This document shows, in pieces, positions 1 through 12,400 of a DNA stretch of 64,000 bases. Made by a program: the position numbers and the translations under genes. The stretch's first letter is position 1, and each line of letters opens with the position of its first letter. The notes beneath the pieces are model-generated. The model was given only the letters and a program-made list of their open reading frames with translations, was not told where the DNA came from and searched no databases. This stretch comes from a virus (taxonomy: Duplodnaviria; Caudoviricetes): IMG/VR virus record IMGVR_UViG_2974518066_000001, positions 66,139 through 130,138 of that record; one strand, 5' to 3'.

Positions 1-71
1 TTACGAACCCGTCTTGACCTCCTAAAGGGAACGGAATAGCTCTCCGTCATCACCGAAGAAGGAGACGAGAA

Positions 72-440
72 GTGGCAAATGATTCTGCACCGAAGAGAGC
101 TAAGCCGAGGGCGGGCGCCAAGACCGCCCCGGCTGCGCCCAGCTTCACCAAGGATCAGGTCGTGATCGAGGATATGGAAGCGCCCAACCGAGGTGCTGCG
201 GTCCTTGCCGAAGAGATTTGGCCATTCGGTCTTCTCAAGCCCTCGGTCATTGGCGAAAACGGGAAGCTGACAGGGCCGTCTTTCTTCATTCCGGATGTGG
301 ACGTTGGTGAGAAGGCGCTGTCGTCGGCGCGGAAGCGCTACAAGGTCGATAAGATCAAGTTCACCTCGCGCAAGATGGTGGGGAAGGGGCCTGACGGGGT
401 TGAGTGCGAAGGCCTTCGCATCTGGCGGATGCCGGATTGA
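72..440 (+). CDS. hypothetical protein
   Basis: ORF with AAGGAG RBS upstream; TTGACC promoter-like site at 14. Confidence 0.7.
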   Translation: MANDSAPKRAKPRAGAKTAPAAPSFTKDQVVIEDMEAPNRGAAVLAEEIWPFGLLKPSVIGENGKLTGPSFFIPDVDVGEKALSSARKRYKVDKIKFTSRKMVGKGPDGVECEGLRIWRMPD

Positions 441-471
441 TAACTTTTTCATGAGCAATGTCGATTTTAAG

Positions 472-500
472 TTGACATTCGTGAAAAACATCTCTATTAG
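472..500 (+). promoter_or_regulatory. sigma70 promoter of tRNA operon 1
   Basis: TTGACA-N17-TATTAG. Confidence 0.75.
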
Positions 501-503
501 CAC

Positions 504-777
504 AAACACCGGCGAGGGGAACCTTGTCGGTGTTTCTGTCTCCACGGTTTTCCGAGGGGCAGGGAGGGCCGTTGAACGGGCCGAGGAGTAAGCGCCGAGC
601 TTGGGCGCTGAAAGCCAGTCCCGGATACGGTTTCGCAGTTGTAGTCCGAGCATAGCTTCGAGCTGGTGACAGAAGGATGGGCGCTGGATTAAGCACCCAG
701 CGTTTCCGGAATTACCACGAGAAGAACTAGCCCGCTGCGAAGGTAAGCTGACCTGTCACGCGGTAAGTCGTGGTTTC
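504..777 (+). ncRNA. unassigned structured RNA at the head of tRNA operon 1
   Basis: 14-bp hairpin with GGAA loop, several further stems, GTGACAG/CTGTCAC long-range pairing; no credible ORF. Confidence 0.55.
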
Positions 778-779
778 AT

Positions 780-857
780 CTGGGTGTAGCGCAGTCCGGT
801 TAGCGTGTGCGGTTCGGAGCCGTGAGGTCGTAGGTTCAAATCCTACCATCCAGACCA
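780..857 (+). tRNA. tRNA-Pro(CGG)
   Basis: cloverleaf, loop TT-CGG-AG, encoded CCA. Confidence 0.92.
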
Positions 858-865
858 TTTTCAGT

Positions 866-943
866 GCCAGTGTAGCTCAGCCCGGTAGAGCAGGAGGCCC
901 ATACCCTCTTTGTCGGTGGTTCAAATCCACCCGTCTGGCACCA
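866..943 (+). tRNA. tRNA-Met/Ile2(CAT), atypical
   Basis: loop CC-CAT-AC (C33), bulged acceptor stem, CCA. Confidence 0.8.
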
Positions 944-950
944 GTTCTTA

Positions 951-1089
951 GAGGTAACGCCGGTTCGAGCCCGGCTCGCCCGCCCAGCTGGTGATCGTCT
1001 AGTTTCGTAGGACGCCTCGCAAGGGAAACGTCGGTTCAAATCCGGCCCGCCCGTAGTTTAGGGTGGTCGTCTAGTGGTTAGGACGCCCT
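951..1089 (+). ncRNA. tandem circularly permuted tRNA-like modules (YrlA/Y-RNA-like architecture)
   Basis: two units of T-arm, loop-closed acceptor stem, D-arm, closed by GAGG/CCTC and AGGG/CCCT. Confidence 0.65.
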
Positions 1090-1131
1090 GTAATTCGGTC
1101 CAGGTATCCGTCAAATCGGATGGACCAGCGG

Positions 1132-1206
1132 TGGGGATTAGCTCAGCGGTAGAGCAGCCGTTTTACATGCGGCCGGTCGGCGGTTCGATCCCGTCATCCC
1201 TAACCA
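1132..1206 (+). tRNA. tRNA-Val(TAC)
   Basis: cloverleaf, loop TT-TAC-AT, CCA. Confidence 0.92.
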
Positions 1207-1208
1207 AC

Positions 1209-1283
1209 GCCTCGTTAGCTCAGCGGTAGAGCGCTGCTATGACATGGCAGATGACGGTGGTTCAAACCCATCACGAGGCACCA
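1209..1283 (+). tRNA. tRNA-Val(GAC)
   Basis: cloverleaf, loop AT-GAC-AT, CCA. Confidence 0.92.
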
Positions 1284-1287
1284 TTTT

Positions 1288-1555
1288 GAGACCCGAGGTA
1301 AAGGGATGTGAGGCGTGCAAGAGCCACGCGCTTTAGAAGCCCTGATCCTTGCGACGGTAGGCTCACGTCGCACCAGTTAGACCAAATCCGTGGCGGATGC
1401 TGCGGCCACCCGCGAGAGTGCGGTAACACCGGAAGGCCAGAGGGCGGTGGCGGTTAGTTATTCGAGGTTGGGCCTGTCGGACGCGGCAGGTAGGAGATCG
1501 CATAGCCCGGCTGTTAACCGGCGGTCCTATACGGACGTGTGAAGCTCCACCCAGC
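1288..1555 (+). ncRNA. unassigned structured RNA containing a tRNA-Asn anticodon stem-loop copy
   Basis: multiple hairpins; GCCCGGCTGTTAACCGG also present in tRNA-Asn. Confidence 0.5.
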
Positions 1556-1630
1556 GGGGATGTAGCTCAGAGGTAGAGCACCCGTTTTGCAAGCGGAAGC
1601 GCGTCGGTTCGACTCCGACCATCTCCACCA
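1556..1630 (+). tRNA. tRNA-Ala(TGC)
   Basis: cloverleaf, G3:U70, CCA. Confidence 0.93.
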
Positions 1631-1764
1631 GTTTAGGACGGCGAGTGGCCCGGTATTGGTCCGGGCATCAAATGGACTGCGGAGCGGGGAACTATCGCCT
1701 ATCCCGCCCGGTCATGCGAGGACAAAATGGAGCGTGGCGCTCCTACTCGCAACGCCACACCTGT

Positions 1765-1846
1765 TTGGTAGTGACAGAGTGGTAATGTGCCCGGCTGTTA
1801 ACCGGTGACCCGAAAGGCGGTGGTTCGATCCCACCCTACCGAACCA
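1765..1846 (+). tRNA. tRNA-Asn(GTT) with long variable arm
   Basis: loop CT-GTT-AA; CC-GAAA-GG variable stem; CCA. Confidence 0.85.
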
Positions 1847-1847
1847 T

Positions 1848-1924
1848 AGCGGTGTAGCTCAGCCCGGTAGAGCAACCGACCGATAATCGGTGTGTCGCAG
1901 GTTCAAATCCTGCCATCGCTACCA
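1848..1924 (+). tRNA. tRNA-Ile(GAT)
   Basis: loop CC-GAT-AA (C33), CCA. Confidence 0.9.
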
Positions 1925-1946
1925 GTTTCTCGAAAGGACCCGACCC

Positions 1947-2453
1947 TTGAAGAAGATGTTCGTGATGGCGGCTGCGGTAGCCTCAATGCTCGTTGCTGCC
2001 TGCGATCGACAGCCTTCTGCTGCCGAGCGCTGCATGGAGGCCAAGAACCCGCAGGAATGCTATCAGGTGGCAAACGCTGGTGGCGACATCAACGATTACC
2101 TGATCGGTGGCCTCGGCGGTTACATGCTGGCGAAGGTCATGAGCGGCGGGCGGCAGCAGACCGTCATCGTGCAGAACCCGAATTATCATGGGCCGCGCCG
2201 ATACGTCCCCAGCTACGCTTCCAGCCGTCAGCGCGTCCTCAACGGACAGGTCAAGACGGTCAGCACCACGACCACGAAGCGCGGCCTGTTCGGGTCGAAG
2301 ACCACCACCACGACCAAGACTTTCGGCTCCAAGCCTGCCAGCTCGTGGGGCTCTTCCTACTCGAAGCCATCCAAGTCTTGGGGCTCGTCGTCCCGGTCCT
2401 TCTCTTCTTCGCGGTCGTCCTTCTCGTCGCGATCTTCGTTCCGGCGCCGCTGA
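1947..2453 (+). CDS. lipoprotein, DUF1190-like, Ser/Arg-rich tail
   Basis: TTG start after AAGGA; lipobox-like LVAAC; Cys pair, GGLGGYMLAK helix, SSR-rich C-terminus. Confidence 0.7.
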   Translation: MKKMFVMAAAVASMLVAACDRQPSAAERCMEAKNPQECYQVANAGGDINDYLIGGLGGYMLAKVMSGGRQQTVIVQNPNYHGPRRYVPSYASSRQRVLNGQVKTVSTTTTKRGLFGSKTTTTTKTFGSKPASSWGSSYSKPSKSWGSSSRSFSSSRSSFSSRSSFRRR

Positions 2454-2488
2454 CAATCTAGGGTTGGTGAATTATTTCACTAACCCTA

Positions 2489-2517
2489 TTGACAGTTAAA
2501 GTAACTTCCGTTACACT
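2489..2517 (+). promoter_or_regulatory. sigma70 promoter of tRNA operon 2
   Basis: TTGACA-N17-TACACT. Confidence 0.85.
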
Positions 2518-2571
2518 CTCCGCATCATGAGCCAATCGGCTCTCATCAGTTTCAGAGAAAAGCTCACCACC

Positions 2572-2631
2572 ATGTTCACCCGGTTTGGAAAACGAGATCG
2601 CCGAGAAGGCGAACGAGGTTTTAGCCTCTAA
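2572..2631 (+). CDS. attenuator leader peptide 1 MFTRFGKRDRREGERGFSL (in-frame upstream ATG at 2527)
   Basis: core made only of K,G,D,E,R,F, matching downstream tRNAs; followed by antiterminator/terminator. Confidence 0.8.
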   Translation: MFTRFGKRDRREGERGFSL

Positions 2632-2668
2632 CCGGTAGTGTGCCTTTTGCTGCCGGTGCTGTTTTAGC

Positions 2669-2744
2669 GGATCGGTAGCTCAGTAGGTAGAGCAGGGGAT
2701 TCTTACTCCCAAGGTGGACGGTTCAAGCCCGTCTCGATCCTCCA
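2669..2744 (+). tRNA. tRNA-Lys(CTT)
   Basis: loop TT-CTT-AC, U73 discriminator, CCA. Confidence 0.88.
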
Positions 2745-2765
2745 AGACAGCATCGGAAGTTTTAG

Positions 2766-2801
2766 ACACCCTACCGGACACCCGGTGGGGTGTTTTCGTT
2801 T
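2766..2801 (+). terminator. intrinsic terminator (attenuator) after first tRNA of operon 2
   Basis: ACACCCTACCGG/CCGGTGGGGTGT stem plus TTTCGTTT. Confidence 0.8.
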
Positions 2802-2816
2802 GCGCTTCTCGGCTTC

Positions 2817-2892
2817 GGGCCGGTAGCTCAGTAGGCAGAGCAGGGGGCTTTTAACCTCAAGGTGGTCGGTTCAAGCCCGACCCGGCTCACCA
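2817..2892 (+). tRNA. tRNA-Lys(TTT)
   Basis: cloverleaf, loop CT-TTT-AA, CCA. Confidence 0.92.
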
Positions 2893-2900
2893 GTTTCAAT

Positions 2901-2975
2901 GCAGGCGTCGTTCAGACGGTAGGACACCTCCTTGCCATGGAGGAGACGCGGGTTCGAGACCCGCCGCCCGCTCCA
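2901..2975 (+). tRNA. tRNA-Gly(GCC)
   Basis: cloverleaf, U73, CCA. Confidence 0.92.
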
Positions 2976-2987
2976 TCATTCACCTTT

Positions 2988-3064
2988 GGTTCTGTAGCTT
3001 AGCTGGTGAAAGCGCCGGGTTGTCAACTCGGAGATCGCGGGTTCAAGTCCCGTCAGAACCGCCA
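2988..3064 (+). tRNA. tRNA-Asp(GTC)
   Basis: cloverleaf, G73, CCA. Confidence 0.93.
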
Positions 3065-3065
3065 T

Positions 3066-3140
3066 GGGGCGTTCGTCTAGCGGACAGGACGCTGGCTTCT
3101 CAAGCCGGAAGCAGGGGTTCGATTCCCCTACGCCTCACCA
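3066..3140 (+). tRNA. tRNA-Glu(CTC)
   Basis: cloverleaf, loop TT-CTC-AA, CCA. Confidence 0.92.
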
Positions 3141-3148
3141 GTTCACAT

Positions 3149-3224
3149 AGCGCCATCGTCTAGCGAGCAGGACACGTTGGCTTTCACCCTTCGGACGCGG
3201 GTTTGAATCCCGTTGGCGCTGCCA
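3149..3224 (+). tRNA. tRNA-Glu(TTC), distorted anticodon stem
   Basis: loop CT-TTC-AC, tandem U.U mismatches, T-loop TTTGAAT, CCA. Confidence 0.75.
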
Positions 3225-3250
3225 GTGAACAGTTATGAAGAGAGTTTCGA

Positions 3251-3325
3251 GCGACATTAGCTCAGCGGTAGAGCGGCGGTTTTCCAGTCCGCGCGTCAGG
3301 AGTTCGATCCTCCTATGTCGCTCCA
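3251..3325 (+). tRNA. tRNA-Gly(TCC)
   Basis: cloverleaf, U73, CCA. Confidence 0.9.
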
Positions 3326-3334
3326 AATTCTCTT

Positions 3335-3410
3335 GGCCCGGAAGCACAACTGGACGTGCGCTCCGCTACGAACGGAAAGGTTGTGGGTTCGAGTCCCACG
3401 CGGGCCTCCA
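3335..3410 (+). tRNA. tRNA-Arg(ACG)
   Basis: loop CT-ACG-AA, CCA. Confidence 0.9.
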
Positions 3411-3415
3411 TTTTC

Positions 3416-3490
3416 GGTGAGGTAGCTCAGAGGTAGAGCGCCGGTTTGAAAAGCCGGGCGTCGGTGGTTCGATCCCGCCTCTCACCACCA
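3416..3490 (+). tRNA. tRNA-Phe(GAA)
   Basis: cloverleaf, loop TT-GAA-AA, CCA. Confidence 0.93.
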
Positions 3491-3497
3491 GAGGTTT

Positions 3498-3854
3498 ATG
3501 CAAGACGAAATCGAACGAAAGCGACGAAACAGCGCGGCCCACTATGCGAGAAATCGGGAGGCCGTAAAGGCTAAGTCGAGGGCAGCAAAGCCTCTACGCC
3601 GAGCTGCCTGTCACCAGTTCGTCCTAGAGTATTTGCTTAATCACCCTTGTGTCGATTGCGGCGAGGACGATCCGATCGTTTTGGAGTTCGACCATCAACG
3701 AGACAAGAGCTTCGCGATTTCTGATGGAGCCCGAGCCGGGTATAGCCTCAAAAAGCTAGAGGCAGAGATCGCAAAGTGTGAGGTTCGCTGTGCCAACTGC
3801 CACAGACGGAAAACCTACCGGGAGCGCGGATTGGAAAATCGCACCATCCATTAA
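3498..3854 (+). CDS. HNH endonuclease
   Basis: CVDCG..LEFDH..CEVRCANCH motif. Confidence 0.88.
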   Translation: MQDEIERKRRNSAAHYARNREAVKAKSRAAKPLRRAACHQFVLEYLLNHPCVDCGEDDPIVLEFDHQRDKSFAISDGARAGYSLKKLEAEIAKCEVRCANCHRRKTYRERGLENRTIH

Positions 3855-3862
3855 AATAGTTA

Positions 3863-3891
3863 TTGACACTAACCTATAGTTCGGTTATCAT
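3863..3891 (+). promoter_or_regulatory. sigma70 promoter of tRNA operon 3 (probably leaderless transcript)
   Basis: TTGACA-N17-TATCAT, ATG 8 nt after the -10. Confidence 0.85.
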
Positions 3892-3898
3892 TCGCACC

Positions 3899-3967
3899 AT
3901 GTTCACACAGACCACCTTGCTTACGCAGTGCCATTATTGGCAACTGCTATCGAGTTCATCCCTCTAA
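3899..3967 (+). CDS. attenuator leader peptide 2 MFTQTTLLTQCHYWQLLSSSSL
   Basis: core made only of S,Y,L,T,H,Q,C,W, matching downstream tRNAs; same start and end context as leader 1. Confidence 0.85.
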   Translation: MFTQTTLLTQCHYWQLLSSSSL

Positions 3968-4001
3968 GGGAGTGGTTCTGACGCGCCACTCCCCGACCTA
4001 C

Positions 4002-4090
4002 GGAGGGTGGCTGCAAGAGGTGCGTAACCGGTCTCGAAAACCGGGCTGGGGTTAGGAGCCCTACGGGTTCGATCCCTGCACCCTCCGCCA
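4002..4090 (+). tRNA. tRNA-Ser(CGA)
   Basis: class II cloverleaf, G73, CCA. Confidence 0.88.
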
Positions 4091-4097
4091 AGTTTTT

Positions 4098-4138
4098 AAG
4101 CGTCTGCGACCACTCGGTCTCAGGCGCTTTTTCGTTTT
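4098..4138 (+). terminator. intrinsic terminator (attenuator) after first tRNA of operon 3
   Basis: AAGCGTCTG-GACC/GGTC-CAGGCGCTT stem plus T-tract. Confidence 0.8.
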
Positions 4139-4154
4139 GGAGATTTTGATTTTC

Positions 4155-4238
4155 GGGAGGGCTGGGCACGAGTGAGCCCACACGCCTGTAAAGCGGACGC
4201 GAAAGCTGTGAGGGTGCAAATTCCCTCACCTCCCACCA
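4155..4238 (+). tRNA. tRNA-Tyr(GTA), atypical
   Basis: loop CT-GTA-AA, variable stem, T-loop TGCAAAT, CCA. Confidence 0.8.
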
Positions 4239-4243
4239 TTATT

Positions 4244-4328
4244 GGCCCGCTGGTGAAATGTAGACGCACTCGCCTCAGAAGCGAGCGACCGAGAGGTCAT
4301 CCCGGTTCAAATCCGGGGCGGGCCACCA
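4244..4328 (+). tRNA. tRNA-Leu(CAG)
   Basis: class II cloverleaf, CCA. Confidence 0.92.
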
Positions 4329-4333
4329 TGATC

Positions 4334-4418
4334 GGGGATGTGGTGAAATAGGTAAACGCAGCGGGTCGAGAGCCCGCCGCCTGATGGCTTGAGGGTTCAA
4401 GTCCCTCCATCCCCACCA
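4334..4418 (+). tRNA. tRNA-Leu(GAG)
   Basis: class II cloverleaf, loop TC-GAG-AG (C33), CCA. Confidence 0.88.
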
Positions 4419-4449
4419 TGATTATCACGCATCTCAGATGCGCCAGAAT

Positions 4450-4523
4450 GCCCGGTTAGCTCAATGGTAGAGCTACGCCGTCGTAACGCGAGGACGAGGG
4501 TTCGATTCCCTCACCGGGCTCCA
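4450..4523 (+). tRNA. tRNA-Thr(CGT)
   Basis: cloverleaf with mismatched anticodon stem, CCA. Confidence 0.82.
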
Positions 4524-4537
4524 TGCAGGTCTCAGGT

Positions 4538-4611
4538 GTGACCGAGGCAGAGTTGGATCATGTGCCGGGTCGTGATCCCGGATACGGCGGGTTCGAGCCC
4601 CGCCGGTCACC
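4538..4611 (+). tRNA. tRNA-His(GTG), no encoded CCA
   Basis: loop TC-GTG-AT (C33), GTGACCG/CGGTCAC acceptor. Confidence 0.82.
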
Positions 4612-4631
4612 CCTAAGCCCTGCAAGGCTAT

Positions 4632-4705
4632 TTCCCGTTCGTTCAATGGTAGGACGCCCGGCTCTGAACCGGGAGATCGAGGTTCGAGTCCTTGACGGGG
4701 AACCA
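4632..4705 (+). tRNA. tRNA-Gln(CTG)
   Basis: U1:A72 cloverleaf, CCA. Confidence 0.92.
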
Positions 4706-4720
4706 GATTTATCCGCACAC

Positions 4721-4807
4721 GGAGAGTTGCCAGAGCGGTAATGGGCTGGCTTGCTAAGCCAAGACAACCTCACGGTTGCGAGGGTTCGATCCCCTCACTC
4801 TCCTCCA
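4721..4807 (+). tRNA. tRNA-Ser(GCT)
   Basis: class II cloverleaf, CCA. Confidence 0.9.
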
Positions 4808-4815
4808 TCATCACT

Positions 4816-4889
4816 GCCGCCTTGGCCGAGTGGCAAGGCTCCGGATTGCAACCCCGGCATCTCCCGTTCGATCCGGGAAGGCGGCTCCA
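4816..4889 (+). tRNA. tRNA-Cys(GCA)
   Basis: cloverleaf, U73, CCA. Confidence 0.9.
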
Positions 4890-4893
4890 TCAT

Positions 4894-4969
4894 ATCTCCA
4901 AAGCATTAAGGGGCGATGCACCGGTCTCCAAAACCGGCAAGCTGGGTTCGAGTCCTAGTGGAGGTGCCA
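4894..4969 (+). tRNA. tRNA-Trp(CCA)
   Basis: loop CT-CCA-AA, G73, CCA. Confidence 0.9.
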
Positions 4970-5133
4970 TATTGCAAAGTCGGGCGTGATGCCCTACATC
5001 CACTCCCGGCTCTCGTCCCTCTTCTCGTGGAGGTTCCGAAAGCCGGTCATGTTAGAAGCGGAACTCGATCTCGATCGTGAGCCACTTCGTGATGAACCGG
5101 AGGATGAGACGGCACATCTCACTTCCTCCAATT

Positions 5134-5165
5134 CGCCGCCGGGTTAATTCCCGGCGGCTTTTTTG
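5134..5165 (+). terminator. intrinsic terminator ending tRNA operon 3
   Basis: GCCGCCGGG/CCCGGCGGC plus T7. Confidence 0.88.
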
Positions 5166-5309
5166 TGCTAATTCGCCTAGAATGATTCGGCAAGGGCGTA
5201 TCTTCTGGTCATTGACTTTTTCGGCATTTTGCTCTATGATCCGGCGTTCTGCATCCGTCTTCGAGGGTGCGTCTCCTCCACATCGTTATCACCCTCACGA
5301 GGACCCATC

Positions 5310-5738
5310 ATGTCCAAGAGCAATTTCCTTGAGAACGCGATTCTGGCCCTGCTGTTCAACGGCACCGGCATCGCCAACCTCGCCGACAACTCGGGCGTCG
5401 CCCCGCTGACCACCCTCTATGTCTCGCTGCACACCAGCGATCCGGGCGAAGCAGGCACGCAGGCCACCAACGAGATCGCCTACACCAACTATGCCCGCGT
5501 CGCCGTCGCCCGCACTGCGGCAGGCTGGCAGGTGACCGGTAATGCCGTGTCCCCGGCGCAGAACATCGACTTCCCGACCGGCACCGGCGGCACCGGCACT
5601 GCCACCCACTTCGGCATCGGCGTGGCGCAGAACGGCGCTGGCACGCTCCTCTACTCGGGCACCATCACTCCGAACATCGTTTGCGGCAACGGCATCACGC
5701 CGCGCCTGAGCACCACGGGCACCATCACCGAGGACTGA
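5310..5738 (+). CDS. virion/tail-fibre-associated structural protein
   Basis: MSKSNFLENAIL..LYVSLHTSDPGEAG..YARVAV pattern typical of phage tail proteins; promoter TTGACT-N17-TATGAT at 5212. Confidence 0.75.
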   Translation: MSKSNFLENAILALLFNGTGIANLADNSGVAPLTTLYVSLHTSDPGEAGTQATNEIAYTNYARVAVARTAAGWQVTGNAVSPAQNIDFPTGTGGTGTATHFGIGVAQNGAGTLLYSGTITPNIVCGNGITPRLSTTGTITED

Positions 5739-5764
5739 TGTGCCTCTCTAACGGGAGGTAATCC

Positions 5765-7396
5765 GTGGCAACAATCTTTGCCAAAGACGATCTGATTGTC
5801 GATGCCACCGCCAGCCTGAATGGGCGGGTGGCGGAGATCGGCGGATCATGGGTCTCTGTTTCTGGCACCAGCTCGGGGCTTGGCGGCACGAGCGGGACCA
5901 TGGGCGTGTATCTGAATCAGGGCGCTCGCTCGACCTCTACCACTTCGCCCGGTGTAATCGCTTACTTGTCGGACCCGGCGCCTGCAGATGACATTGTTCT
6001 GTCTTGGAAGTCCGGCTACTTCGGCACTTCCGGCGCTCCGGGTGTGGCCTTCCGTGTCAATGGCACGTCAGGCTACCTACTGCAGCTCGCGCAGACTTTC
6101 ATCGTCCTCTACAAGACTGTTGCCGGTTCGCGGAAGACGGTCATCCAGCAGACGGGATTGTCGCCTCTCAGTCCCACCAACGCTTTTCACGACTACGAAT
6201 TGCATGTGAAGGGTGGCCGTCTCAGCCTTTATAAAGACGGCGCCCTTTTCTGGGAATATGAGGACGCAGACGCGCCACTTCTGACGGCGGGTAACGTCGG
6301 CCTCTTCATTCGCGGCGATGGTCGCACAACAAATTTCCTAGCCTACGTCCCGGACGGCGAAATTGTCGTCGGCTCCCCTGAATCGGCGGGCTCCTCGGAG
6401 GCCGCTTTCGCCGGTGAGAAGTTCGTAGCGGGGTCGATCAGCTCAGCAGGCACGACGCCGACCGCCTACATGCAGTCGGCGACCTACCGCGTCGGCGAGA
6501 TGCGAAACGCTAACGGCGAGTCAAACGCTCGCTTCGACGCTATCGCTCTCATCACTGCCCAGATGTATGCGCTGGCGCAGGCTCCTGAGCCAGACTTCCA
6601 TAGCGTCGGCTTCTCCGCCACGACCGGTGCCATGGATGGCGCAGGGACCACGGTAGCTGCGTTCGTTGGTCGGGCTACCATGTCGGGCGATATGGCTGGT
6701 GCTGGCGTTACCAGTGATGCTATGGTCTCTCGCGCTTTCGGACAGGGCGAGGGCGAGTTCTCGATCGGCAGCGGCGGCACCTCGGCGGCTGCGTTCACCG
6801 CTCAGCGGATCGTCAGCGCTCGGATGCAGTCGGAGCCAAAATACGACGGCGACTCCTTCAAGTTTGTCGGCGGGCGCACGATCGAGGCTTCGTTCCTTTC
6901 GGAAGGCTCCAGCACCGCAGGCTTCACCGGTTACGTCGCAGTGCGGATCGAGGCCGCTGGCTCCTCGACTGCCTCGTTCGCTCCCACTGATGTCACGATC
7001 CCGGCGACCTTCTCGGCTGTCGGTTCGTCAGTCGGCGCTCTCAAGGAGCTGGAGTTCGCGGTAACGCGCTTCGGGCAGGTAGGCGCCCTCGGCTTCGGTC
7101 GCATGGTGGGCGTATCTGTCACCGGCGGCGCCATGAAGTCGCAGGGTGCTTCGATCATGTCGGGCTGGGCAGGGGCGACGATCTTCTCTAGCGAGATGGG
7201 GGCGGAAGGCTCCATGCGTGGTCGCATGGTCTCGCTCTCGTTCAGCAGCAACATCCCCACACCGGACGATCGCGTCTCCTTCCTCCCGGCCGAGGATCGA
7301 ACCGCTGTCCTTGAGGTCGAAGATCGGGAAGTGCTTCTCCCGGTTGAAGACCGCGAAATCCTCCTCCCGGCCGAAGATCGGATTGCATACCTATGA
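5765..7396 (+). CDS. tail fibre/head decoration-like protein with lectin-like N-terminal domain
   Basis: 543 aa, G/S/A-rich repeats, C-terminal (L)PxEDR repeats, structural gene context. Confidence 0.6.
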   Translation: MATIFAKDDLIVDATASLNGRVAEIGGSWVSVSGTSSGLGGTSGTMGVYLNQGARSTSTTSPGVIAYLSDPAPADDIVLSWKSGYFGTSGAPGVAFRVNGTSGYLLQLAQTFIVLYKTVAGSRKTVIQQTGLSPLSPTNAFHDYELHVKGGRLSLYKDGALFWEYEDADAPLLTAGNVGLFIRGDGRTTNFLAYVPDGEIVVGSPESAGSSEAAFAGEKFVAGSISSAGTTPTAYMQSATYRVGEMRNANGESNARFDAIALITAQMYALAQAPEPDFHSVGFSATTGAMDGAGTTVAAFVGRATMSGDMAGAGVTSDAMVSRAFGQGEGEFSIGSGGTSAAAFTAQRIVSARMQSEPKYDGDSFKFVGGRTIEASFLSEGSSTAGFTGYVAVRIEAAGSSTASFAPTDVTIPATFSAVGSSVGALKELEFAVTRFGQVGALGFGRMVGVSVTGGAMKSQGASIMSGWAGATIFSSEMGAEGSMRGRMVSLSFSSNIPTPDDRVSFLPAEDRTAVLEVEDREVLLPVEDREILLPAEDRIAYL

Positions 7397-7677
7397 GCAT
7401 GAAATGGAAGACCCCGAAGGACCCGGATGAAATCCTCGACTATGTGGTCGATTATTCCAGTCGCATGGTTCCCGGCGACCGCATCGCCTCGATCATGGAG
7501 GTGTCTGTCGTCGATGGCTCCGTCCATATCGACAGCTATTCCTTCACCGACAATCGCCTGACGGTCTGGCTGTCTGGCGGCACGGAAGGGGAGGCATGTC
7601 CGATCCTGTTTCGTGTCACCACGGAAGGCGGGCGCTTGCTCGACCAGACTGTCACCGTGAAGATCAAAACGAAATAA
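7393..7677 (+). CDS. phage fibre-tail adaptor-like protein
   Basis: KDPDEILDY..VWLSGG..TTEGGR motif. Confidence 0.7.
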   Translation: MSMKWKTPKDPDEILDYVVDYSSRMVPGDRIASIMEVSVVDGSVHIDSYSFTDNRLTVWLSGGTEGEACPILFRVTTEGGRLLDQTVTVKIKTK

Positions 7678-7732
7678 TTTTGGCTGCGATGACAGAATCA
7701 GTTGACATATGAATCATTCGGGTCTAGTGATC

Positions 7733-8035
7733 CTGTCATCGAGACGGCGATGCGGAGGGGCCTCCTCCACGGAGACGCTGAGGCACTGGACTACAAAGCC
7801 GGTGGCGTTTCTACCGTTCGAGACTGAGCCCGCGCTTACAGCGATGGGTCTATCGAGGCTTCGGCCGCTGAGCCAGCGTAGCAGATCAGCGGTCACCAAC
7901 ACTCGCAATGCGAGACCTCTTGCATAAGCGCCCGGCCTGAATCGTCGGTAGCGGGATGTGGCTCAACACTAGGGCGGCGAAGCTGGGAGTAGTGCCCCGG
8001 CGAGCTTCGAGGTTTCACATTGCCAGTGATGGCTA
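7733..8035 (+). ncRNA. unassigned structured RNA
   Basis: downstream of TTGACA promoter at 7702; dense hairpins, no credible ORF. Confidence 0.45.
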
Positions 8036-8036
8036 A

Positions 8037-8165
8037 GATCAGGTCGGTTGCCCGAGTGGTTTAAGGGTGATCGATGCAAGACTGGATGGGATCGGAGGCA
8101 ACGGCTCCGCACCACATGACGGTAAACCGTCCAGCCGAGGGTTCGACTCCCTCACCGGTCTGATC
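8037..8165 (+). ncRNA. tRNA-like element with expanded anticodon/variable region
   Basis: canonical D-arm and T-arm GGTTCGACTCC, 12-bp extended acceptor, no CCA. Confidence 0.6.
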
Positions 8166-8176
8166 GATTACGAGGT

Positions 8177-9056
8177 TGGCCCGCCGTGCCGTTATCGTCC
8201 GCGCTTCTTAGCGCGGGGCGCCGGGCCACATTTTTAGAAAGGAAGTTGTTGGATACGGAACTTGCCTACCTTGCTGGGTTTCTTGACGGAGAAGGCACGA
8301 TAGGTTTGTTCAAGACTTCTGGTGCCAATGCGTTCAAGGTGCCGTGTATTTCGGTGTCCAGCACGGATAGGTATCTTCTGGATGCTTACGTCCATCGTTT
8401 CGGTGGACACATCCAGACCAAGGCGAGCAAACGGCCTGAAAATCATCGGCAAGCCTATGAATATCGCTTGCGTGGTCCTAAGGCTATTTGCGCGATTTCG
8501 GAGTTGTTTCCGTATTTACGCCACCACGTCAAGCGCGCCAGAGCGACGATGATCTTGGAGCACTTCACCAAGATCACTAAGCGCAACGGGAAATACACCG
8601 AAGCTGAGCGCGCTATAAAGATAAGGTGGGAAGAGTTATTTCTCAGCTTGTCATCGCGAGGTGGCGATGCTTGGACAAGGGATTACCAGCAGTTCGCTGT
8701 TGGTGATGATGATCGTAATTCGGACGATTGAGGACGCGCACGGACCGGGGAGCGTTACCCCGCACCTCCACCATTGCTGCTGAGCGCGAGGCTCAGAACT
8801 TCGGAGACACGGCGGTATCCAACCCGCAGGGCCTCAGTAGCATTGATGGGGGTGAAGTAGGATCGACGTGCAAGGCTGAGAGAAGGACGCGATCGGTTTG
8901 GGTGCTGCCCCTTATGCGGTGCCAAGGCTTTAACTGCCAACGACAATGATGTTGTCACTGCGGAAGTGCGCCTCGCGGCGTAACCCGAGAAATTCCTGAG
9001 CCTTCAACAAGCTCAGGTGCGGACTGGCCCACCGAGCAACAGGACGGGCCACATTT
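8177..9056 (+). ncRNA. ssrA: permuted two-piece tmRNA (acceptor piece 8177-8773 interrupted by HEG; coding piece from 8848), tag ANDNDVVTAEVRLAA
   Basis: CACCTCCACCA 3' end lies before GGGGGTG 5' end, G3:U70, TAACT-GCC-AAC-GAC resume site, tag ends LAA. Confidence 0.9.
8186..8731 (+). CDS. LAGLIDADG homing endonuclease (likely start TTG near 8246)
   Basis: LAYLAGFLDGEG motif; AAGGAAG RBS; lower GC than flanks. Confidence 0.88.
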   Translation: MPLSSALLSAGRRATFLERKLLDTELAYLAGFLDGEGTIGLFKTSGANAFKVPCISVSSTDRYLLDAYVHRFGGHIQTKASKRPENHRQAYEYRLRGPKAICAISELFPYLRHHVKRARATMILEHFTKITKRNGKYTEAERAIKIRWEELFLSLSSRGGDAWTRDYQQFAVGDDDRNSDD

Positions 9057-9286
9057 GAGGCAGGGGCCGATCACAACCTCCCCTGACCGCTCGCTGTGTC
9101 CCCGCGCAGCCGTGATCGGTCTCTTCCTCAACTGTGACAAATTTAGGTGAGGAGCCGTGGCTGCAATCGCGGTGTTTTGCAGGACCGACCGACACAACTG
9201 GACAGTCCTCACCTGATCATCTCTGCAGGGTTTCCCGTTCCCTGCATGACAGCCGGGCGACCCATGTCTCCCCCGAAAGCCCGGCG

Positions 9287-9328
9287 AGGCCCGCGACCAA
9301 AATCATCGGTCGCGGGCCTTTCTGTTTG
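9287..9328 (+). terminator. intrinsic terminator
   Basis: AGGCCCGCGACC/GGTCGCGGGCCT plus T-rich tail. Confidence 0.75.
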
Positions 9329-9433
9329 TCGGATGGTTATTAAAACTTGACTTTCAACGGTTCGAGAGTTAGTCAGGCGGACCAAATCTGAATCGGCGAC
9401 CCAAGCCGAAATCCCTCATTCTCTAAGGTATCC

Positions 9434-12400
9434 ATGGCAACATACACGAAAGCCCTCGCCGAGCTGTTCGACGGGGTAGGGGGCACGGTCGTCCTCCACG
9501 ACGCCGATGGCGCGACTTACGCCGAGACCGATCTGGCGGAGCTGGCGAGCATCGCCGACGAGCTGATTGCCGGTGACCTCGACCCGTGGGTTGATCTGGT
9601 GACCGCCGAAGGCACTGCTATCGGCTTGTTCGTTCCCGGCGACGCCACCGCCGTGAGCCCGCCGCCCAGCGCGATCGTGGATGGTGGCATGGTCTACCTG
9701 TTCAATGAACCGGTCGAAGGTCAGAAGCCGGGCGTGAACCTTTGCCCGCTCGACCTCATCGAAGGCGCCGTGACATATGATCCGACCCGCTTGGAGCTGT
9801 CCACCGACGCCTCCAAGCGTTCGATCACTCTGGGGCAGGGCCGCCGAAGTGATGAAAAGCAGGGCAAGTGGAAGGAGATCACTTCCACCTTCGGCGCGTT
9901 CACCGATTTCCTGCGCCAGCACAATGAAGGCCAGAAGGATGGTCCATGCTTCCTGCAAGGCGCCACGGCTGGTGGCACCCGTAAGGCGGCGGCGATTATC
10001 GGCAACGATGTGCTCGGCGTCGATCTCGATTCCGGTGCGCCCCTGAGTGACGTGATCGACACAATCGTCCGCCATCGGCTGGAGGCTGTGATCTACACGA
10101 CCCACAGCCATCTCAAGGACACCAGCGTCATCAAGCGCGACCATTATTTCAAGTGGTCTGGCGAGCTTGTCGCAACGACCGAAGGCGTCGCGGATTACCT
10201 GCAGCAGGTGAAGGGCGTCCTCCCCCACATCGTCGAGGACGTGGAAATCGTCAACGAGAGCCACCATACCGAAGATGGTATCGTGATCCTCGTGAAGCAC
10301 CGGCCGATGCCAAAATTCCGCGCCGTGTTTCCGCTCAAGGAGACTTTCGTGTTCTCCAAGCGCGGCGGCACCCAGCAGGACGCCATCGCGGAGTGGAAGG
10401 AACGATACGCTGGCTTCTGCACCGAGCTGGGTCTGTTCTTCGACGAGAAGTGCGTCGATCCGGCGCGCCTGTTCTATTTCCCTCGGCACGCCAAGGGCGA
10501 CACCAGCTTTGGCTCGTGGCACGTCGTGGGCGGCGCTCTGGACCTCGACGACTACGACCGTGTGAAGATGAAGCGCGGCCGGGATGGTAAGCGCCGGGCC
10601 GTGTCGAGCAATGCCTTCACGGCGGCTGGCGGCGGCGAGGAAGAGGACGATCGGGAGCGCTACGTCACCGACGATGGCTTCCACCTGCGTCCGTGGGCGG
10701 CGAAGTTCGCCAACCGCTTCGAGGTCGAGATGATGCTGGAGACGGTGGTCGGCGACGACTTCATGCGAGACCCGCGCACCGGCGGTAAGCCCGGCACGCA
10801 CGTCGAGTGCCCCTTCGAGGCGGAGCACACCAGCTTCGGCGGCGGCGGCACCTATGTCGTCAACGCCTCCGACAATATGGATGACGGCTTCGACGGCGGC
10901 TTCACCTTCCACTGTGTTCACAACGCCTGTTCAGGTCGTGACCGGCTCGACTACCTGTGCGAGTTGATCAATCAGGGTGTGATCTCGTCGAAGGACCTGC
11001 AGAACAAGGAGTTCATGGTCGCGCTGGAAGGCGACGACGATGATGAAGATGAAGTCGAGGCGGAAGCCGACGATCGCCGGGTGAATGCCGCAGCGGCCAA
11101 GGCCGGGCTGTCCGGGACGTTCGCAGGTGTTCGTGGCCAGTCCAAGAAGCCTTCGATGGAGGGCATGACCGAGGACGAAATTCTCCTCTGGGAGATGAAC
11201 GATCGCTATGCGGTGATCCGCACCAGCGGCGGCGTCAAGATTCTTGTCGAGCCCCGCACCGCTGATGGCGATGTCTCATTCGAGAGCCAGAACGACGTTG
11301 CCCTGTTCGAGAAGAACAACGTGCTGTGGATGGGCGACGGCAAGAAGGGCAAGCAGAAGATCGAGGTCTTCAAGCTGTGGCTCGAATGGGAGCACCGCCG
11401 CACCTACGTCGATGTCGTCTTCGAGCCGGGCCGGGAGACTGAGGAGCATACCTACAATCTCTTCCGTGGCTGGCCCTACAGCCCGAAGGAGACGTTCTGG
11501 GAGCAGGTCACCGATAACAAGGACAAGCCCGTGCCCGGCGACTGGTCCATGCTTCGTGGTCACATCTACGAGAACATCTGCGAGTCCAACGACGAAATGT
11601 TCGGGTGGTTGATGACGTGGCTGGCCCACCTGTTCCAGCACCCCGACCAAAAGCCGGGCTCCACCGTCGTCGTCACCGGCAAGAAGGGCACCGGCAAGTC
11701 CACGCTCTTCGACTATGTGAACAAGGCTCTGGGGCGCTGCGGGATCACTGTGTCGCAGCGTAAGCAGATCGTCGGCCAGTTCAATGGTCACCTTGCTACG
11801 ACGCTCCTGATGGTCTGCGAAGAAGCCTTCTGGGCAGCGGACCCGCAGGCGGAAGGCGTGCTCAAGGACATGATCACCAACAAGTCGATGTTGATCGAAA
11901 AGAAGGGCTACGACCCGATCCAGTCGAACAACTACACCCGGCTTGCCCTGATCTCGAACAACGAGTGGGTCGTTCCCGCCTCCCTCAAAGACGAGCGTCG
12001 CTTCTTTGTTCTGCGATGCTCCGATGCACGTCAGGGTGACCTTGCTTTCTTCGGCGCCCTCCGTGAACAGATGGAGAAGCTGGGAGGTATCGAGGCCATG
12101 ATGTATGACCTCATGACTTGGGAGCCGACGAACGGTCACTTCTCCTCGCTCTACACGCCGCCGGTGACGCAGTATCTGCAGCAGCAGCAGGTCGAATCTC
12201 TTTCGGGTGTCCAGAAGTTCATGCTTGAACTGGTCAAATCGGGTATCTACGAGACCCATGACGACAAGGTAGAGGCGATCGAACTCAACACCGACAAGGA
12301 GACCATGGTCACGGCGGTGGATATGCGAGCGGCGATCGAAGATTACACCCGCTTCCGGTTTGCTTCCGACAAGGCCAAGACTTCCTATGACGACATTTCG

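Follow-up and report, generated by a model that had tools for sequence, protein, structure and literature searches.

Why should the transfer RNA (tRNA) genes of a phage stand behind short open reading frames (ORFs) that are written almost entirely in the amino acids those tRNAs carry? The question is raised by Sphingobium phage Lacusarx, of which we analysed a 64,000-nucleotide (nt) stretch, hereafter the window (bases 66139-130138 of a single contig of 130,138 base pairs (bp)). The tRNA region of this phage has been published as 66918-71107, which corresponds to window 780-4969, and includes an rtcB gene; leaders or attenuation are not mentioned in that paper (PMC5648845). The tRNA genes fall into three blocks, for Pro/Met/Val/Ala/Asn/Ile (operon 1), Lys/Gly/Asp/Glu/Arg/Phe (operon 2), and Ser/Tyr/Leu/Thr/His/Gln/Cys/Trp (operon 3), so that all twenty amino acids are covered with zero overlap. 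In both operons 2 and 3 we found the layout claimed by an initial annotation of this DNA, namely a promoter, a short ORF, a segment just past its stop codon (segment A), the first tRNA, a terminator, and the remaining tRNAs, all on the plus strand. This anatomy of leader, terminator, and segment A is real and conserved, and the composition of the leaders co-varies with the content of the operons. From the sequence and from folding models, we consider it probable that these units carry out ribosome-mediated transcription attenuation, by which the transcription of the phage tRNAs would be matched to decoding speed.

The tRNAs that the initial annotation had listed for the two operons were recovered by ARAGORN and Rfam: Lys CTT, Lys TTT, Gly GCC, Asp, Glu CTC, Glu TTC, Gly TCC, Arg ACG, and Phe in operon 2, and Ser CGA, Leu CAG, Leu GAG, Thr CGT, His, Gln CTG, Ser GCT, Cys, Trp, and Tyr GTA in operon 3. 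The tRNA-Tyr (4155-4238), whose D and acceptor stems are irregular, was found by ARAGORN only at a relaxed threshold and is identical at 70 of 89 positions to the Tyr tRNA of the relative L147. According to the published description of Lacusarx, Met and Tyr tRNAs are lacking (PMC5648845), in contrast to this gene and to a tRNA with a CAT anticodon at 866-943.

The match between leaders and operons is firm at the amino-acid level. After its Met, leader 1 (2572-2631, 19 amino acids (aa) plus stop) has Lys, Gly, Asp, Glu, Arg, or Phe at 15 of 18 residues, with all six present, and leader 2 (3899-3967, 22 aa plus stop) has Ser, Tyr, Leu, Thr, His, Gln, Cys, or Trp at 20 of 21, with all eight present. 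Residues outside the sets occur at the second and third codons and at the last two codons, which are positions common to both leaders; the two ORFs also have identical first bases around the ATG and an identical last sense codon followed by TAA. The 14-residue core of leader 1 and the 20-residue core of leader 2 are, as first described, confined to the six and the eight amino acids of their sets with each one used, and a recount of the synonymous codons gave the same figures (5 Leu, 4 Ser, 3 Thr, 3 Arg, and 3 Gly). Near-identical public DNA contigs have zero substitutions inside either leader ORF. When all ATG-initiated ORFs of 12-40 aa from either strand of the 130-kilobase (kb) genome were scored against the three sets (1324 ORFs and 3 sets, hence 3972 tests, with short ORFs as the background), leader 2 ranked first (binomial p 2e-8, 8/8 set members) and leader 1 ranked fourth (binomial p 6e-6, 6/6 set members), and each of them is located exactly between the promoter and the operon of the matching set. 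The chance calculation proposed in the initial annotation thus has an answer, in that shuffle and rank statistics exclude chance, and a fortuitous match of leader to operon was rejected on the genome-wide ranking and on the relatives described below.

Relatives with the same layout were found as two Erythrobacter phages, vB_EliS-L02 and XM05, by distant BLAST, and as at least eight uncultured contigs by pattern scans; a degenerate DNA pattern gave at least 120 matches in metagenome contigs, and among the matches listed the real relatives were L147 and L148 only. The initial annotation had proposed conservation in related phages as a check on the leaders, and a homologous leader does stand in front of both the Lys-first and the Ser-first block in every same-layout relative found. 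In a matrix of 20 leaders, taken from the window and from its relatives (the two Erythrobacter phages and eight uncultured contigs), each fitted the set of its own operon (p 1e-3 to 2e-10) and failed to fit the other two, with zero set members missing. The operon-3 leaders are 22-27 aa long, share 48-58% identity with that of the window, and vary in the order of their rare residues. Among their substituted columns, 62% keep both residues within the set, compared with 36% for one-step mutational neighbours, the pairs in this comparison not being independent. Many leaders, across blocks and phages (window, L001, L003, and L183), begin with Met-Phe-Thr or a close variant of it, and several have a Gly-Asp-Gly-Gly tail motif. 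This common start and tail points to either a shared origin of the attenuator units or some constraint on initiation.

A further comparison is provided by CbK-like phages, namely CcrColossus, phiCbK, and CcrSC, whose host is Caulobacter, and Domovoi, whose host is Brevundimonas. Their tRNA genes are partitioned in another way, into Pro/Thr/Lys/Leu/His/Ala/Ser, Tyr-or-Phe/Val/Ile/Gln/Asn/Arg, and a small Glu/Asp block. A scan for short ORFs upstream of tRNA runs found one leader per large block, written in the amino acids of that block. In the first-block leaders, 35/38, 36/42, 39/41, and 32/38 residues are in the set (p 1e-7 to 9e-13), the best being that of phiCbK (39/41, p 9e-13), and the second-block leaders have a core of 13-15 residues drawn almost wholly from theirs. 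A tRNA-Trp is present in the first block of CcrSC and of no other of the four, and the leader of this block has a Trp codon in CcrSC only. The expectation that leader composition would co-vary with cluster content was therefore borne out with a different block content. The leaders of the Glu/Asp blocks contain too few sensor codons for scoring. A terminator lies directly behind the leaders called B and C in this group, except for leader B of CcrColossus and CcrSC, behind which none was found. In CcrColossus (L182 8950-8985) and Domovoi (L183 8960-8995), a second mini-ORF, of five codons and with a good Shine-Dalgarno sequence, follows the attenuator terminator and precedes the first tRNA of the Val/Ile/Gln/Asn/Arg block. 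Some of the leader ORFs in this group have been deposited as hypothetical proteins (phiCbK gp335, L185 7806-7943; CcrSC gp541, L187 2552-2671; and L183 8738-8872), and the others are without annotation.

How might such a leader act on the tRNAs behind it? In operon 2, a sigma-70-like promoter (2489-2517, with the -35 at 2489-2494 and the -10 at 2512-2517) agrees with the consensus at 10 of 12 positions and is found in the same place in all relatives. The 5' untranslated region of about 48 nt contains a predicted stem-loop (2529-2542), which by eye recurs in the same place in relatives with other stem letters, for the operon-2 and the operon-1 leaders alike. A longer ORF from an in-frame ATG at 2527 was considered and rejected, as it is found in no relative, abuts this stem-loop, and has lost its ATG in one near-identical public contig. 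Leader 1 is conserved in 8 relatives, strongly so at the nucleotide level, and its start is conserved behind a Shine-Dalgarno sequence that is weak in the window and clearer in the relatives; from such features the leaders are presumably translated. Segment A of the window (2632-2643) begins 1 nt past the stop codon and is a near copy of the 3' arm of the intrinsic terminator (2766-2801: 5' arm 2766-2777, loop 2778-2781, 3' arm 2782-2793, T tract to 2801; hairpin -21.6 kcal/mol), which is conserved with its T-rich tail in all relatives. Segment A is separated from the terminator by tRNA-Lys CTT (2669-2744), and the other eight tRNA genes follow at 2817-3490. To have the first tRNA upstream of the terminator, as in both operons 2 and 3, is atypical for leader-peptide attenuators.

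In nine loci, segment A of operon 2 is 12 nt long and starts 1 or 2 nt past the stop codon, and 10-11 of its 11-12 positions can pair with the 5' arm of the terminator (-13.7 to -17.4 kcal/mol; in the window, 10/12 positions and -15.3 kcal/mol). Compensatory double changes are present at two positions, from A-T to G-C in L005 and from C-G to T-A in the window and L005, and two further positions have wobble-compatible single changes. One mismatch in segment A is conserved, which would make it a weaker partner for the 5' arm than the 3' arm of the terminator. The sequences flanking tRNA-Lys CTT (2650-2668 and 2745-2762) can also pair with each other, and therefore the antiterminator would be a long composite helix closing over the tRNA.

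The effect of the ribosome was modelled by holding a footprint of 29 nt single-stranded in equilibrium models of either the full transcript or a transcript ending before the 3' arm. With the ribosome at the stop codon of operon 2, the full transcript formed the terminator with a probability of 0.97-1.0 in 7 of 8 loci and of 0.77-0.98, depending on the hairpin limits, in the eighth (L148), and with the ribosome stalled at some positions within the leader this fell to about 0-0.1 in most relatives. In the transcript ending just before the 3' arm, the 5' arm was sequestered, also in the absence of a ribosome, and about 0.9 paired unless the ribosome was at the stop codon or the last 1-3 codons, where pairing was 0.28-0.74; in two of the loci the drops were small (0.91 to 0.74 and 0.83 to 0.67). 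Among the CbK-like phages, the full transcript switched in 2/4 loci for leader B and 2/4 for leader C, and in these loci a ribosome in the sensor codons led to the antiterminator and a ribosome further on led to the terminator. These models point to termination upon completed translation as the likely direction of the switch.

The corresponding elements of operon 3 are a sigma-70-like promoter (3863-3891; -35 at 3863-3868 and -10 at 3886-3891; 11 of 12 consensus positions), leader 2, a segment A (3969-3984) within the 5' strand and loop of a post-stop hairpin (3968-3993), tRNA-Ser CGA (4002-4090), an intrinsic terminator that is conserved in relatives (4099-4139: 5' arm 4099-4111, loop 4112-4115, 3' arm 4116-4128, T tract to 4139; hairpin -18 kcal/mol), and the other nine tRNA genes at 4155-4969, of which tRNA-Tyr is the first. 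Since the end of the -10 is exactly 7 nt from the ATG in all 8 homologues, the messenger RNA of operon 3 is probably leaderless. The post-stop segment (stop +1 to +18) can pair with the 5' arm and loop of the terminator at -15.5 to -24.2 kcal/mol, and in 6 of 8 loci this was equalled or beaten by 0-5 of 500 shuffles (in the window, -20.9 kcal/mol, with 2/500 shuffles as good). The 7-bp core of this pairing is invariant in 7 of the 8 loci, the window having one mismatch, and thus no co-variation is available here.

From these elements, a sequence of events can be proposed. Each operon would be transcribed from its strong promoter, and a ribosome would translate the leader of 19 or 22 codons, which contains at least one codon for each amino acid of the downstream tRNAs. 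If decoding is fast, the ribosome would reach the stop codon and its footprint would cover segment A, 1-2 nt further on, leaving the 5' arm of the terminator free for the 3' arm, and transcription would end after the first tRNA. Should any one of the sensed aminoacyl-tRNAs run short, the ribosome would stall within the leader, and the free segment A could pair with the 5' arm across the folded first tRNA, so that RNA polymerase might continue through the eight or nine tRNA genes that remain. The outcome would be a feedback loop that fits the tRNA output of the phage to decoding demand, set by set. We infer that the natural signal is a shortage of tRNA rather than of amino acid.

Several results weigh against this proposal. 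The switch logic of the initial annotation was supported in operon 2 by the pairing of segment A, the compensatory changes, and the mask folding, while in operon 3 it was not reproduced: neither the full nor the shortened transcripts of operon 3 and of the relatives' operon-1 leaders gave a clear ribosome-dependent switch. A loop change at 4114 in close relatives breaks a predicted antiterminator pair of operon 3 and is uncompensated. Even in operon 2 of the window, stalling in the full transcript lowered the terminator only to 0.3-0.6 at several codons, which is a modest effect. The point of decision lies about 130-160 nt past the stop codon, so that one or more ribosomes would need to remain at the stop for seconds. 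Phaeobacter phage MD18, in which the tRNAs are interspersed with other genes, has no matched leaders, and thus control of this kind is dispensable. No operon-1 leader was found in six frames of the 130-kb Lacusarx genome. None of the public RNA runs contained a useful share of the phage, and the literature yielded no infection transcriptome.

The codons of the leaders belong to the same weighing. In the window, 14 of the 15 in-set codons of leader 1 can be read by operon-2 tRNAs (15/15 in several relatives), which is uninformative because nearly any synonymous codon would be readable there. The sole Lys codon in the operon-2 leaders is AAA (6/6 loci examined), which tRNA-Lys CTT, the one ahead of the terminator, cannot read. 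Just 11 of the 19 in-set codons of leader 2 are readable by the operon-3 tRNAs of Lacusarx, and consequently stalls at the remaining codons would be beyond relief by read-through, which again speaks against the proposal. In relatives that have additional isoacceptors for Thr, Ser, Leu, and Gln, 17-18 of about 20 operon-3 leader codons are readable, and the match at the level of isoacceptors looks ancestral rather than current in Lacusarx.

These difficulties have to be set beside what other explanations would make of the same data. The leaders could be translated and matched to their operons and yet control the processing or stability of tRNA precursors or protection from Rho, or the polarity could be reversed such that completed translation leads to read-through. 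A nuclease site, for example, could be provided by the long helix that segment A forms with the tRNA flanks and the terminator arm, and the enclosure of the first tRNA by its flanks and by the helix of segment A with the 5' arm does resemble a processing stem. The lack of a clear ribosome-dependent terminator switch in the operon-3 and operon-1 models would fit either version, as would the shortened-transcript model of the CbK C leaders, in which the 5' arm is sequestered again with the ribosome at the stop codon. We nevertheless regard such control as rather unlikely. Against it stand a canonical terminator and T tract between the leader and the gated tRNAs in every unit (the two B leaders named above apart), a segment A that mimics the 3' arm of the terminator and co-varies with its 5' arm, and the models of operon 2 and of half of the CbK B and C loci, with termination upon completed translation and antitermination upon stalling.

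The units could also be classical sensors of amino-acid starvation that respond to charging, in which case any tie to tRNA abundance or to tRNA-cleaving defences would be incidental. A ribosome cannot distinguish a missing tRNA from an uncharged one, all leader-peptide attenuators known to us (trp, his, thr, and ilv) respond to charging, and many codons of leader 2, as noted, are unreadable by the tRNAs of the phage itself. However, the match of the leaders tracks the content of the operons across two different partitions, and because an extra tRNA is useless without its amino acid, selection for an exact match of leader to tRNAs would be hard to explain by starvation, which makes this explanation quite improbable in our view. 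It is very improbable indeed that the short ORFs encode trans-acting small proteins or that their match is a by-product of RNA-level constraints or of chance. The annotation of phiCbK gp335 and CcrSC gp541 as hypothetical proteins and the high nucleotide conservation of the operon-2 leader would be in keeping with such a reading, whereas the operon-3 peptides keep their composition and not their order, which is unlike the evolution of folded or binding peptides, and chance is excluded by the rank statistics and by the co-variation across partitions. Attenuation by a translating ribosome is the probable explanation that we retain.

The absence of a leader from operon 1 of Lacusarx can be considered in the light of its relatives. 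In the same-layout relatives, a third leader precedes the Pro-first block (Pro/Met/Val/Ala/Asn/Ile), with a terminator and then the tRNAs directly behind it in the textbook layout; for example, in L001 (2156-2242), the first twenty codons specify Asn, Val, Ile, Ala, Met, and Pro, one Phe excepted. A search of viral contigs with an operon-1 leader pattern gave no match. By comparison with its relatives, Lacusarx appears to have lost a leader that they have kept, and its operon 1 lies directly behind a structured non-coding stretch. By eye, it corresponds to the beginning of a long non-coding unit of the relatives. In both Erythrobacter phages, a unit of about 1.5 kb upstream of the Pro-first block contains a GOLLD-like giant RNA (RF02032; L001 769-1259 and L002 2965-3449, scoring 142 and 120 bits against a gathering score of 150) with an embedded tRNA-like module. 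No Rfam match to GOLLD was found in Lacusarx, which by eye has only the first part of this unit (window 500-780), fused directly to tRNA-Pro. Such a fusion would explain the absent operon-1 leader.

Other features of the region may be mentioned briefly. The tRNA region is closed by a strong terminator (5135-5165), in which a T run comes after 9 G-C pairs. A 118-aa ORF (3498-3854) located between operons 2 and 3 has Cys pairs and a His-containing motif that by eye are HNH-like. It is absent from near-identical public contigs of 90 kb and 121 kb, in which 93 other letters join 3411 to 3853, and it probably entered as a mobile element, for instance one encoding a homing endonuclease. Between operons 1 and 2, the product of the ORF at 1955-2453 is lipoprotein-like by eye, with a signal-peptide-like start ending in Cys and a Ser/Thr-rich tail. 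No Pfam family was found for these two ORFs or for the ORF at 72-440. The operon 1 spacers at 940-1131, 1284-1555, and 1631-1764 are long and contain tRNA-like fragments, and Rfam gave no family for them, only weak Y-RNA-like matches nearby. A two-piece (permuted) transfer-messenger RNA (tmRNA) of alphaproteobacterial type is located at 8667-9074, 3.7 kb downstream of the tRNA blocks; in relatives the tmRNA lies directly behind the last tRNA. In window 1-10000, an Rfam scan with E values up to 1 yielded only tRNA, tmRNA, and weak chance matches.

How do these units compare with known attenuators? In enterobacteria, several leaders are multivalent, such as those of thr (Thr and Ile) and ilvGMEDA (Ile, Val, and Leu), and trp, his, leu, and phe are also controlled by leader peptides. 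Like the phage units, these systems have a short leader rich in regulatory codons, may sense more than one amino acid, and have a terminator with a competing antiterminator and a stop codon so placed that the terminating ribosome blocks the antiterminator, as it is predicted to do in the phage units. Unlike them, the phage units would regulate tRNAs rather than biosynthetic enzymes, their leaders list six to eight amino acids at least once each instead of containing runs of one to three, operons 2 and 3 place a whole tRNA gene between the antiterminator strand and the terminator, operon 3 is predicted to be leaderless, and there is no relation by sequence or by Rfam; no Rfam leader family (Trp, His, Thr, Leu, or other) and no T-box matched 2489-2668 or 3863-4001. 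In pheST, with its pheM leader, leader-peptide attenuation acts on a part of the translation machinery devoted to the sensed amino acid, as it would in the phage units; the gene concerned is, however, a cellular one for a synthetase, and one amino acid is sensed. T-boxes, found mostly with synthetase and amino-acid genes, resemble the proposed phage units in that transcription attenuation answers to the state of a specific tRNA, but they bind the uncharged tRNA directly, without a ribosome.

The closest published case of an inducible tRNA array is the trn operon of Anabaena sp. PCC 7120, a supernumerary array spread by horizontal transfer, which stays silent as long as translation is unimpaired and is co-regulated with an rtcB ligase gene (PMC8421152, PMC10272220). 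The phage blocks would share such behaviour, and an rtcB gene is likewise reported in the tRNA region of Lacusarx (PMC5648845). Control of the Anabaena array differs, being exerted by a repressor on direct repeats at the promoter, and neither of the two papers mentions a leader peptide or attenuation (PMC8421152, PMC10272220). In mycobacteria, leaderless polycysteine short ORFs are reported to act as attenuators whose codon content makes downstream expression respond to Cys (bioRxiv 10.1101/834739). These ORFs are similar to what is proposed for the phage leaders in that a short ORF, itself leaderless, sets the response by its codon content, and differ from them in that, as described there, Cys alone is sensed and Cys-related protein genes, not tRNA genes, are controlled (bioRxiv 10.1101/834739). 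The initial annotation knew of no description of tRNA operons under attenuation, and in our full-text literature search, too, no description came up of tRNA genes, whether of phages or not, being controlled by leader peptides or attenuation.

What tRNA genes are for in phages has been under debate for fifty years, with codon compensation, decay of host tRNAs, and escape from anticodon nucleases as the main proposals. If attenuation as proposed here is correct, phage tRNA genes would be a demand-driven supply rather than a constitutive supplement, and the leaders would directly reveal the shortages that the phage expects. Since the element is present in cultured pairs of phage and host (Lacusarx with Sphingobium sp. 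IP1 and phiCbK with Caulobacter crescentus), this can be tested with standard tools. A wider possibility, which we put forward tentatively and hold to be doubtful, is that the tRNA blocks are modular, self-gauging units with inventory leaders, by which the phage would gauge the decoding capacity of the cell one set at a time and replace only those tRNAs that the host has lost to shut-off or to tRNA-cleaving defence nucleases. If so, the leaders would be the sensor arm of a counter-defence, and the movement of fixed tRNA sets together in evolution would be explained; the link to anticodon nucleases and counter-defence is a conjecture. At the least, attenuation of these operons would extend to tRNA genes a form of control, that by leader peptides, which is known for amino-acid and synthetase genes.

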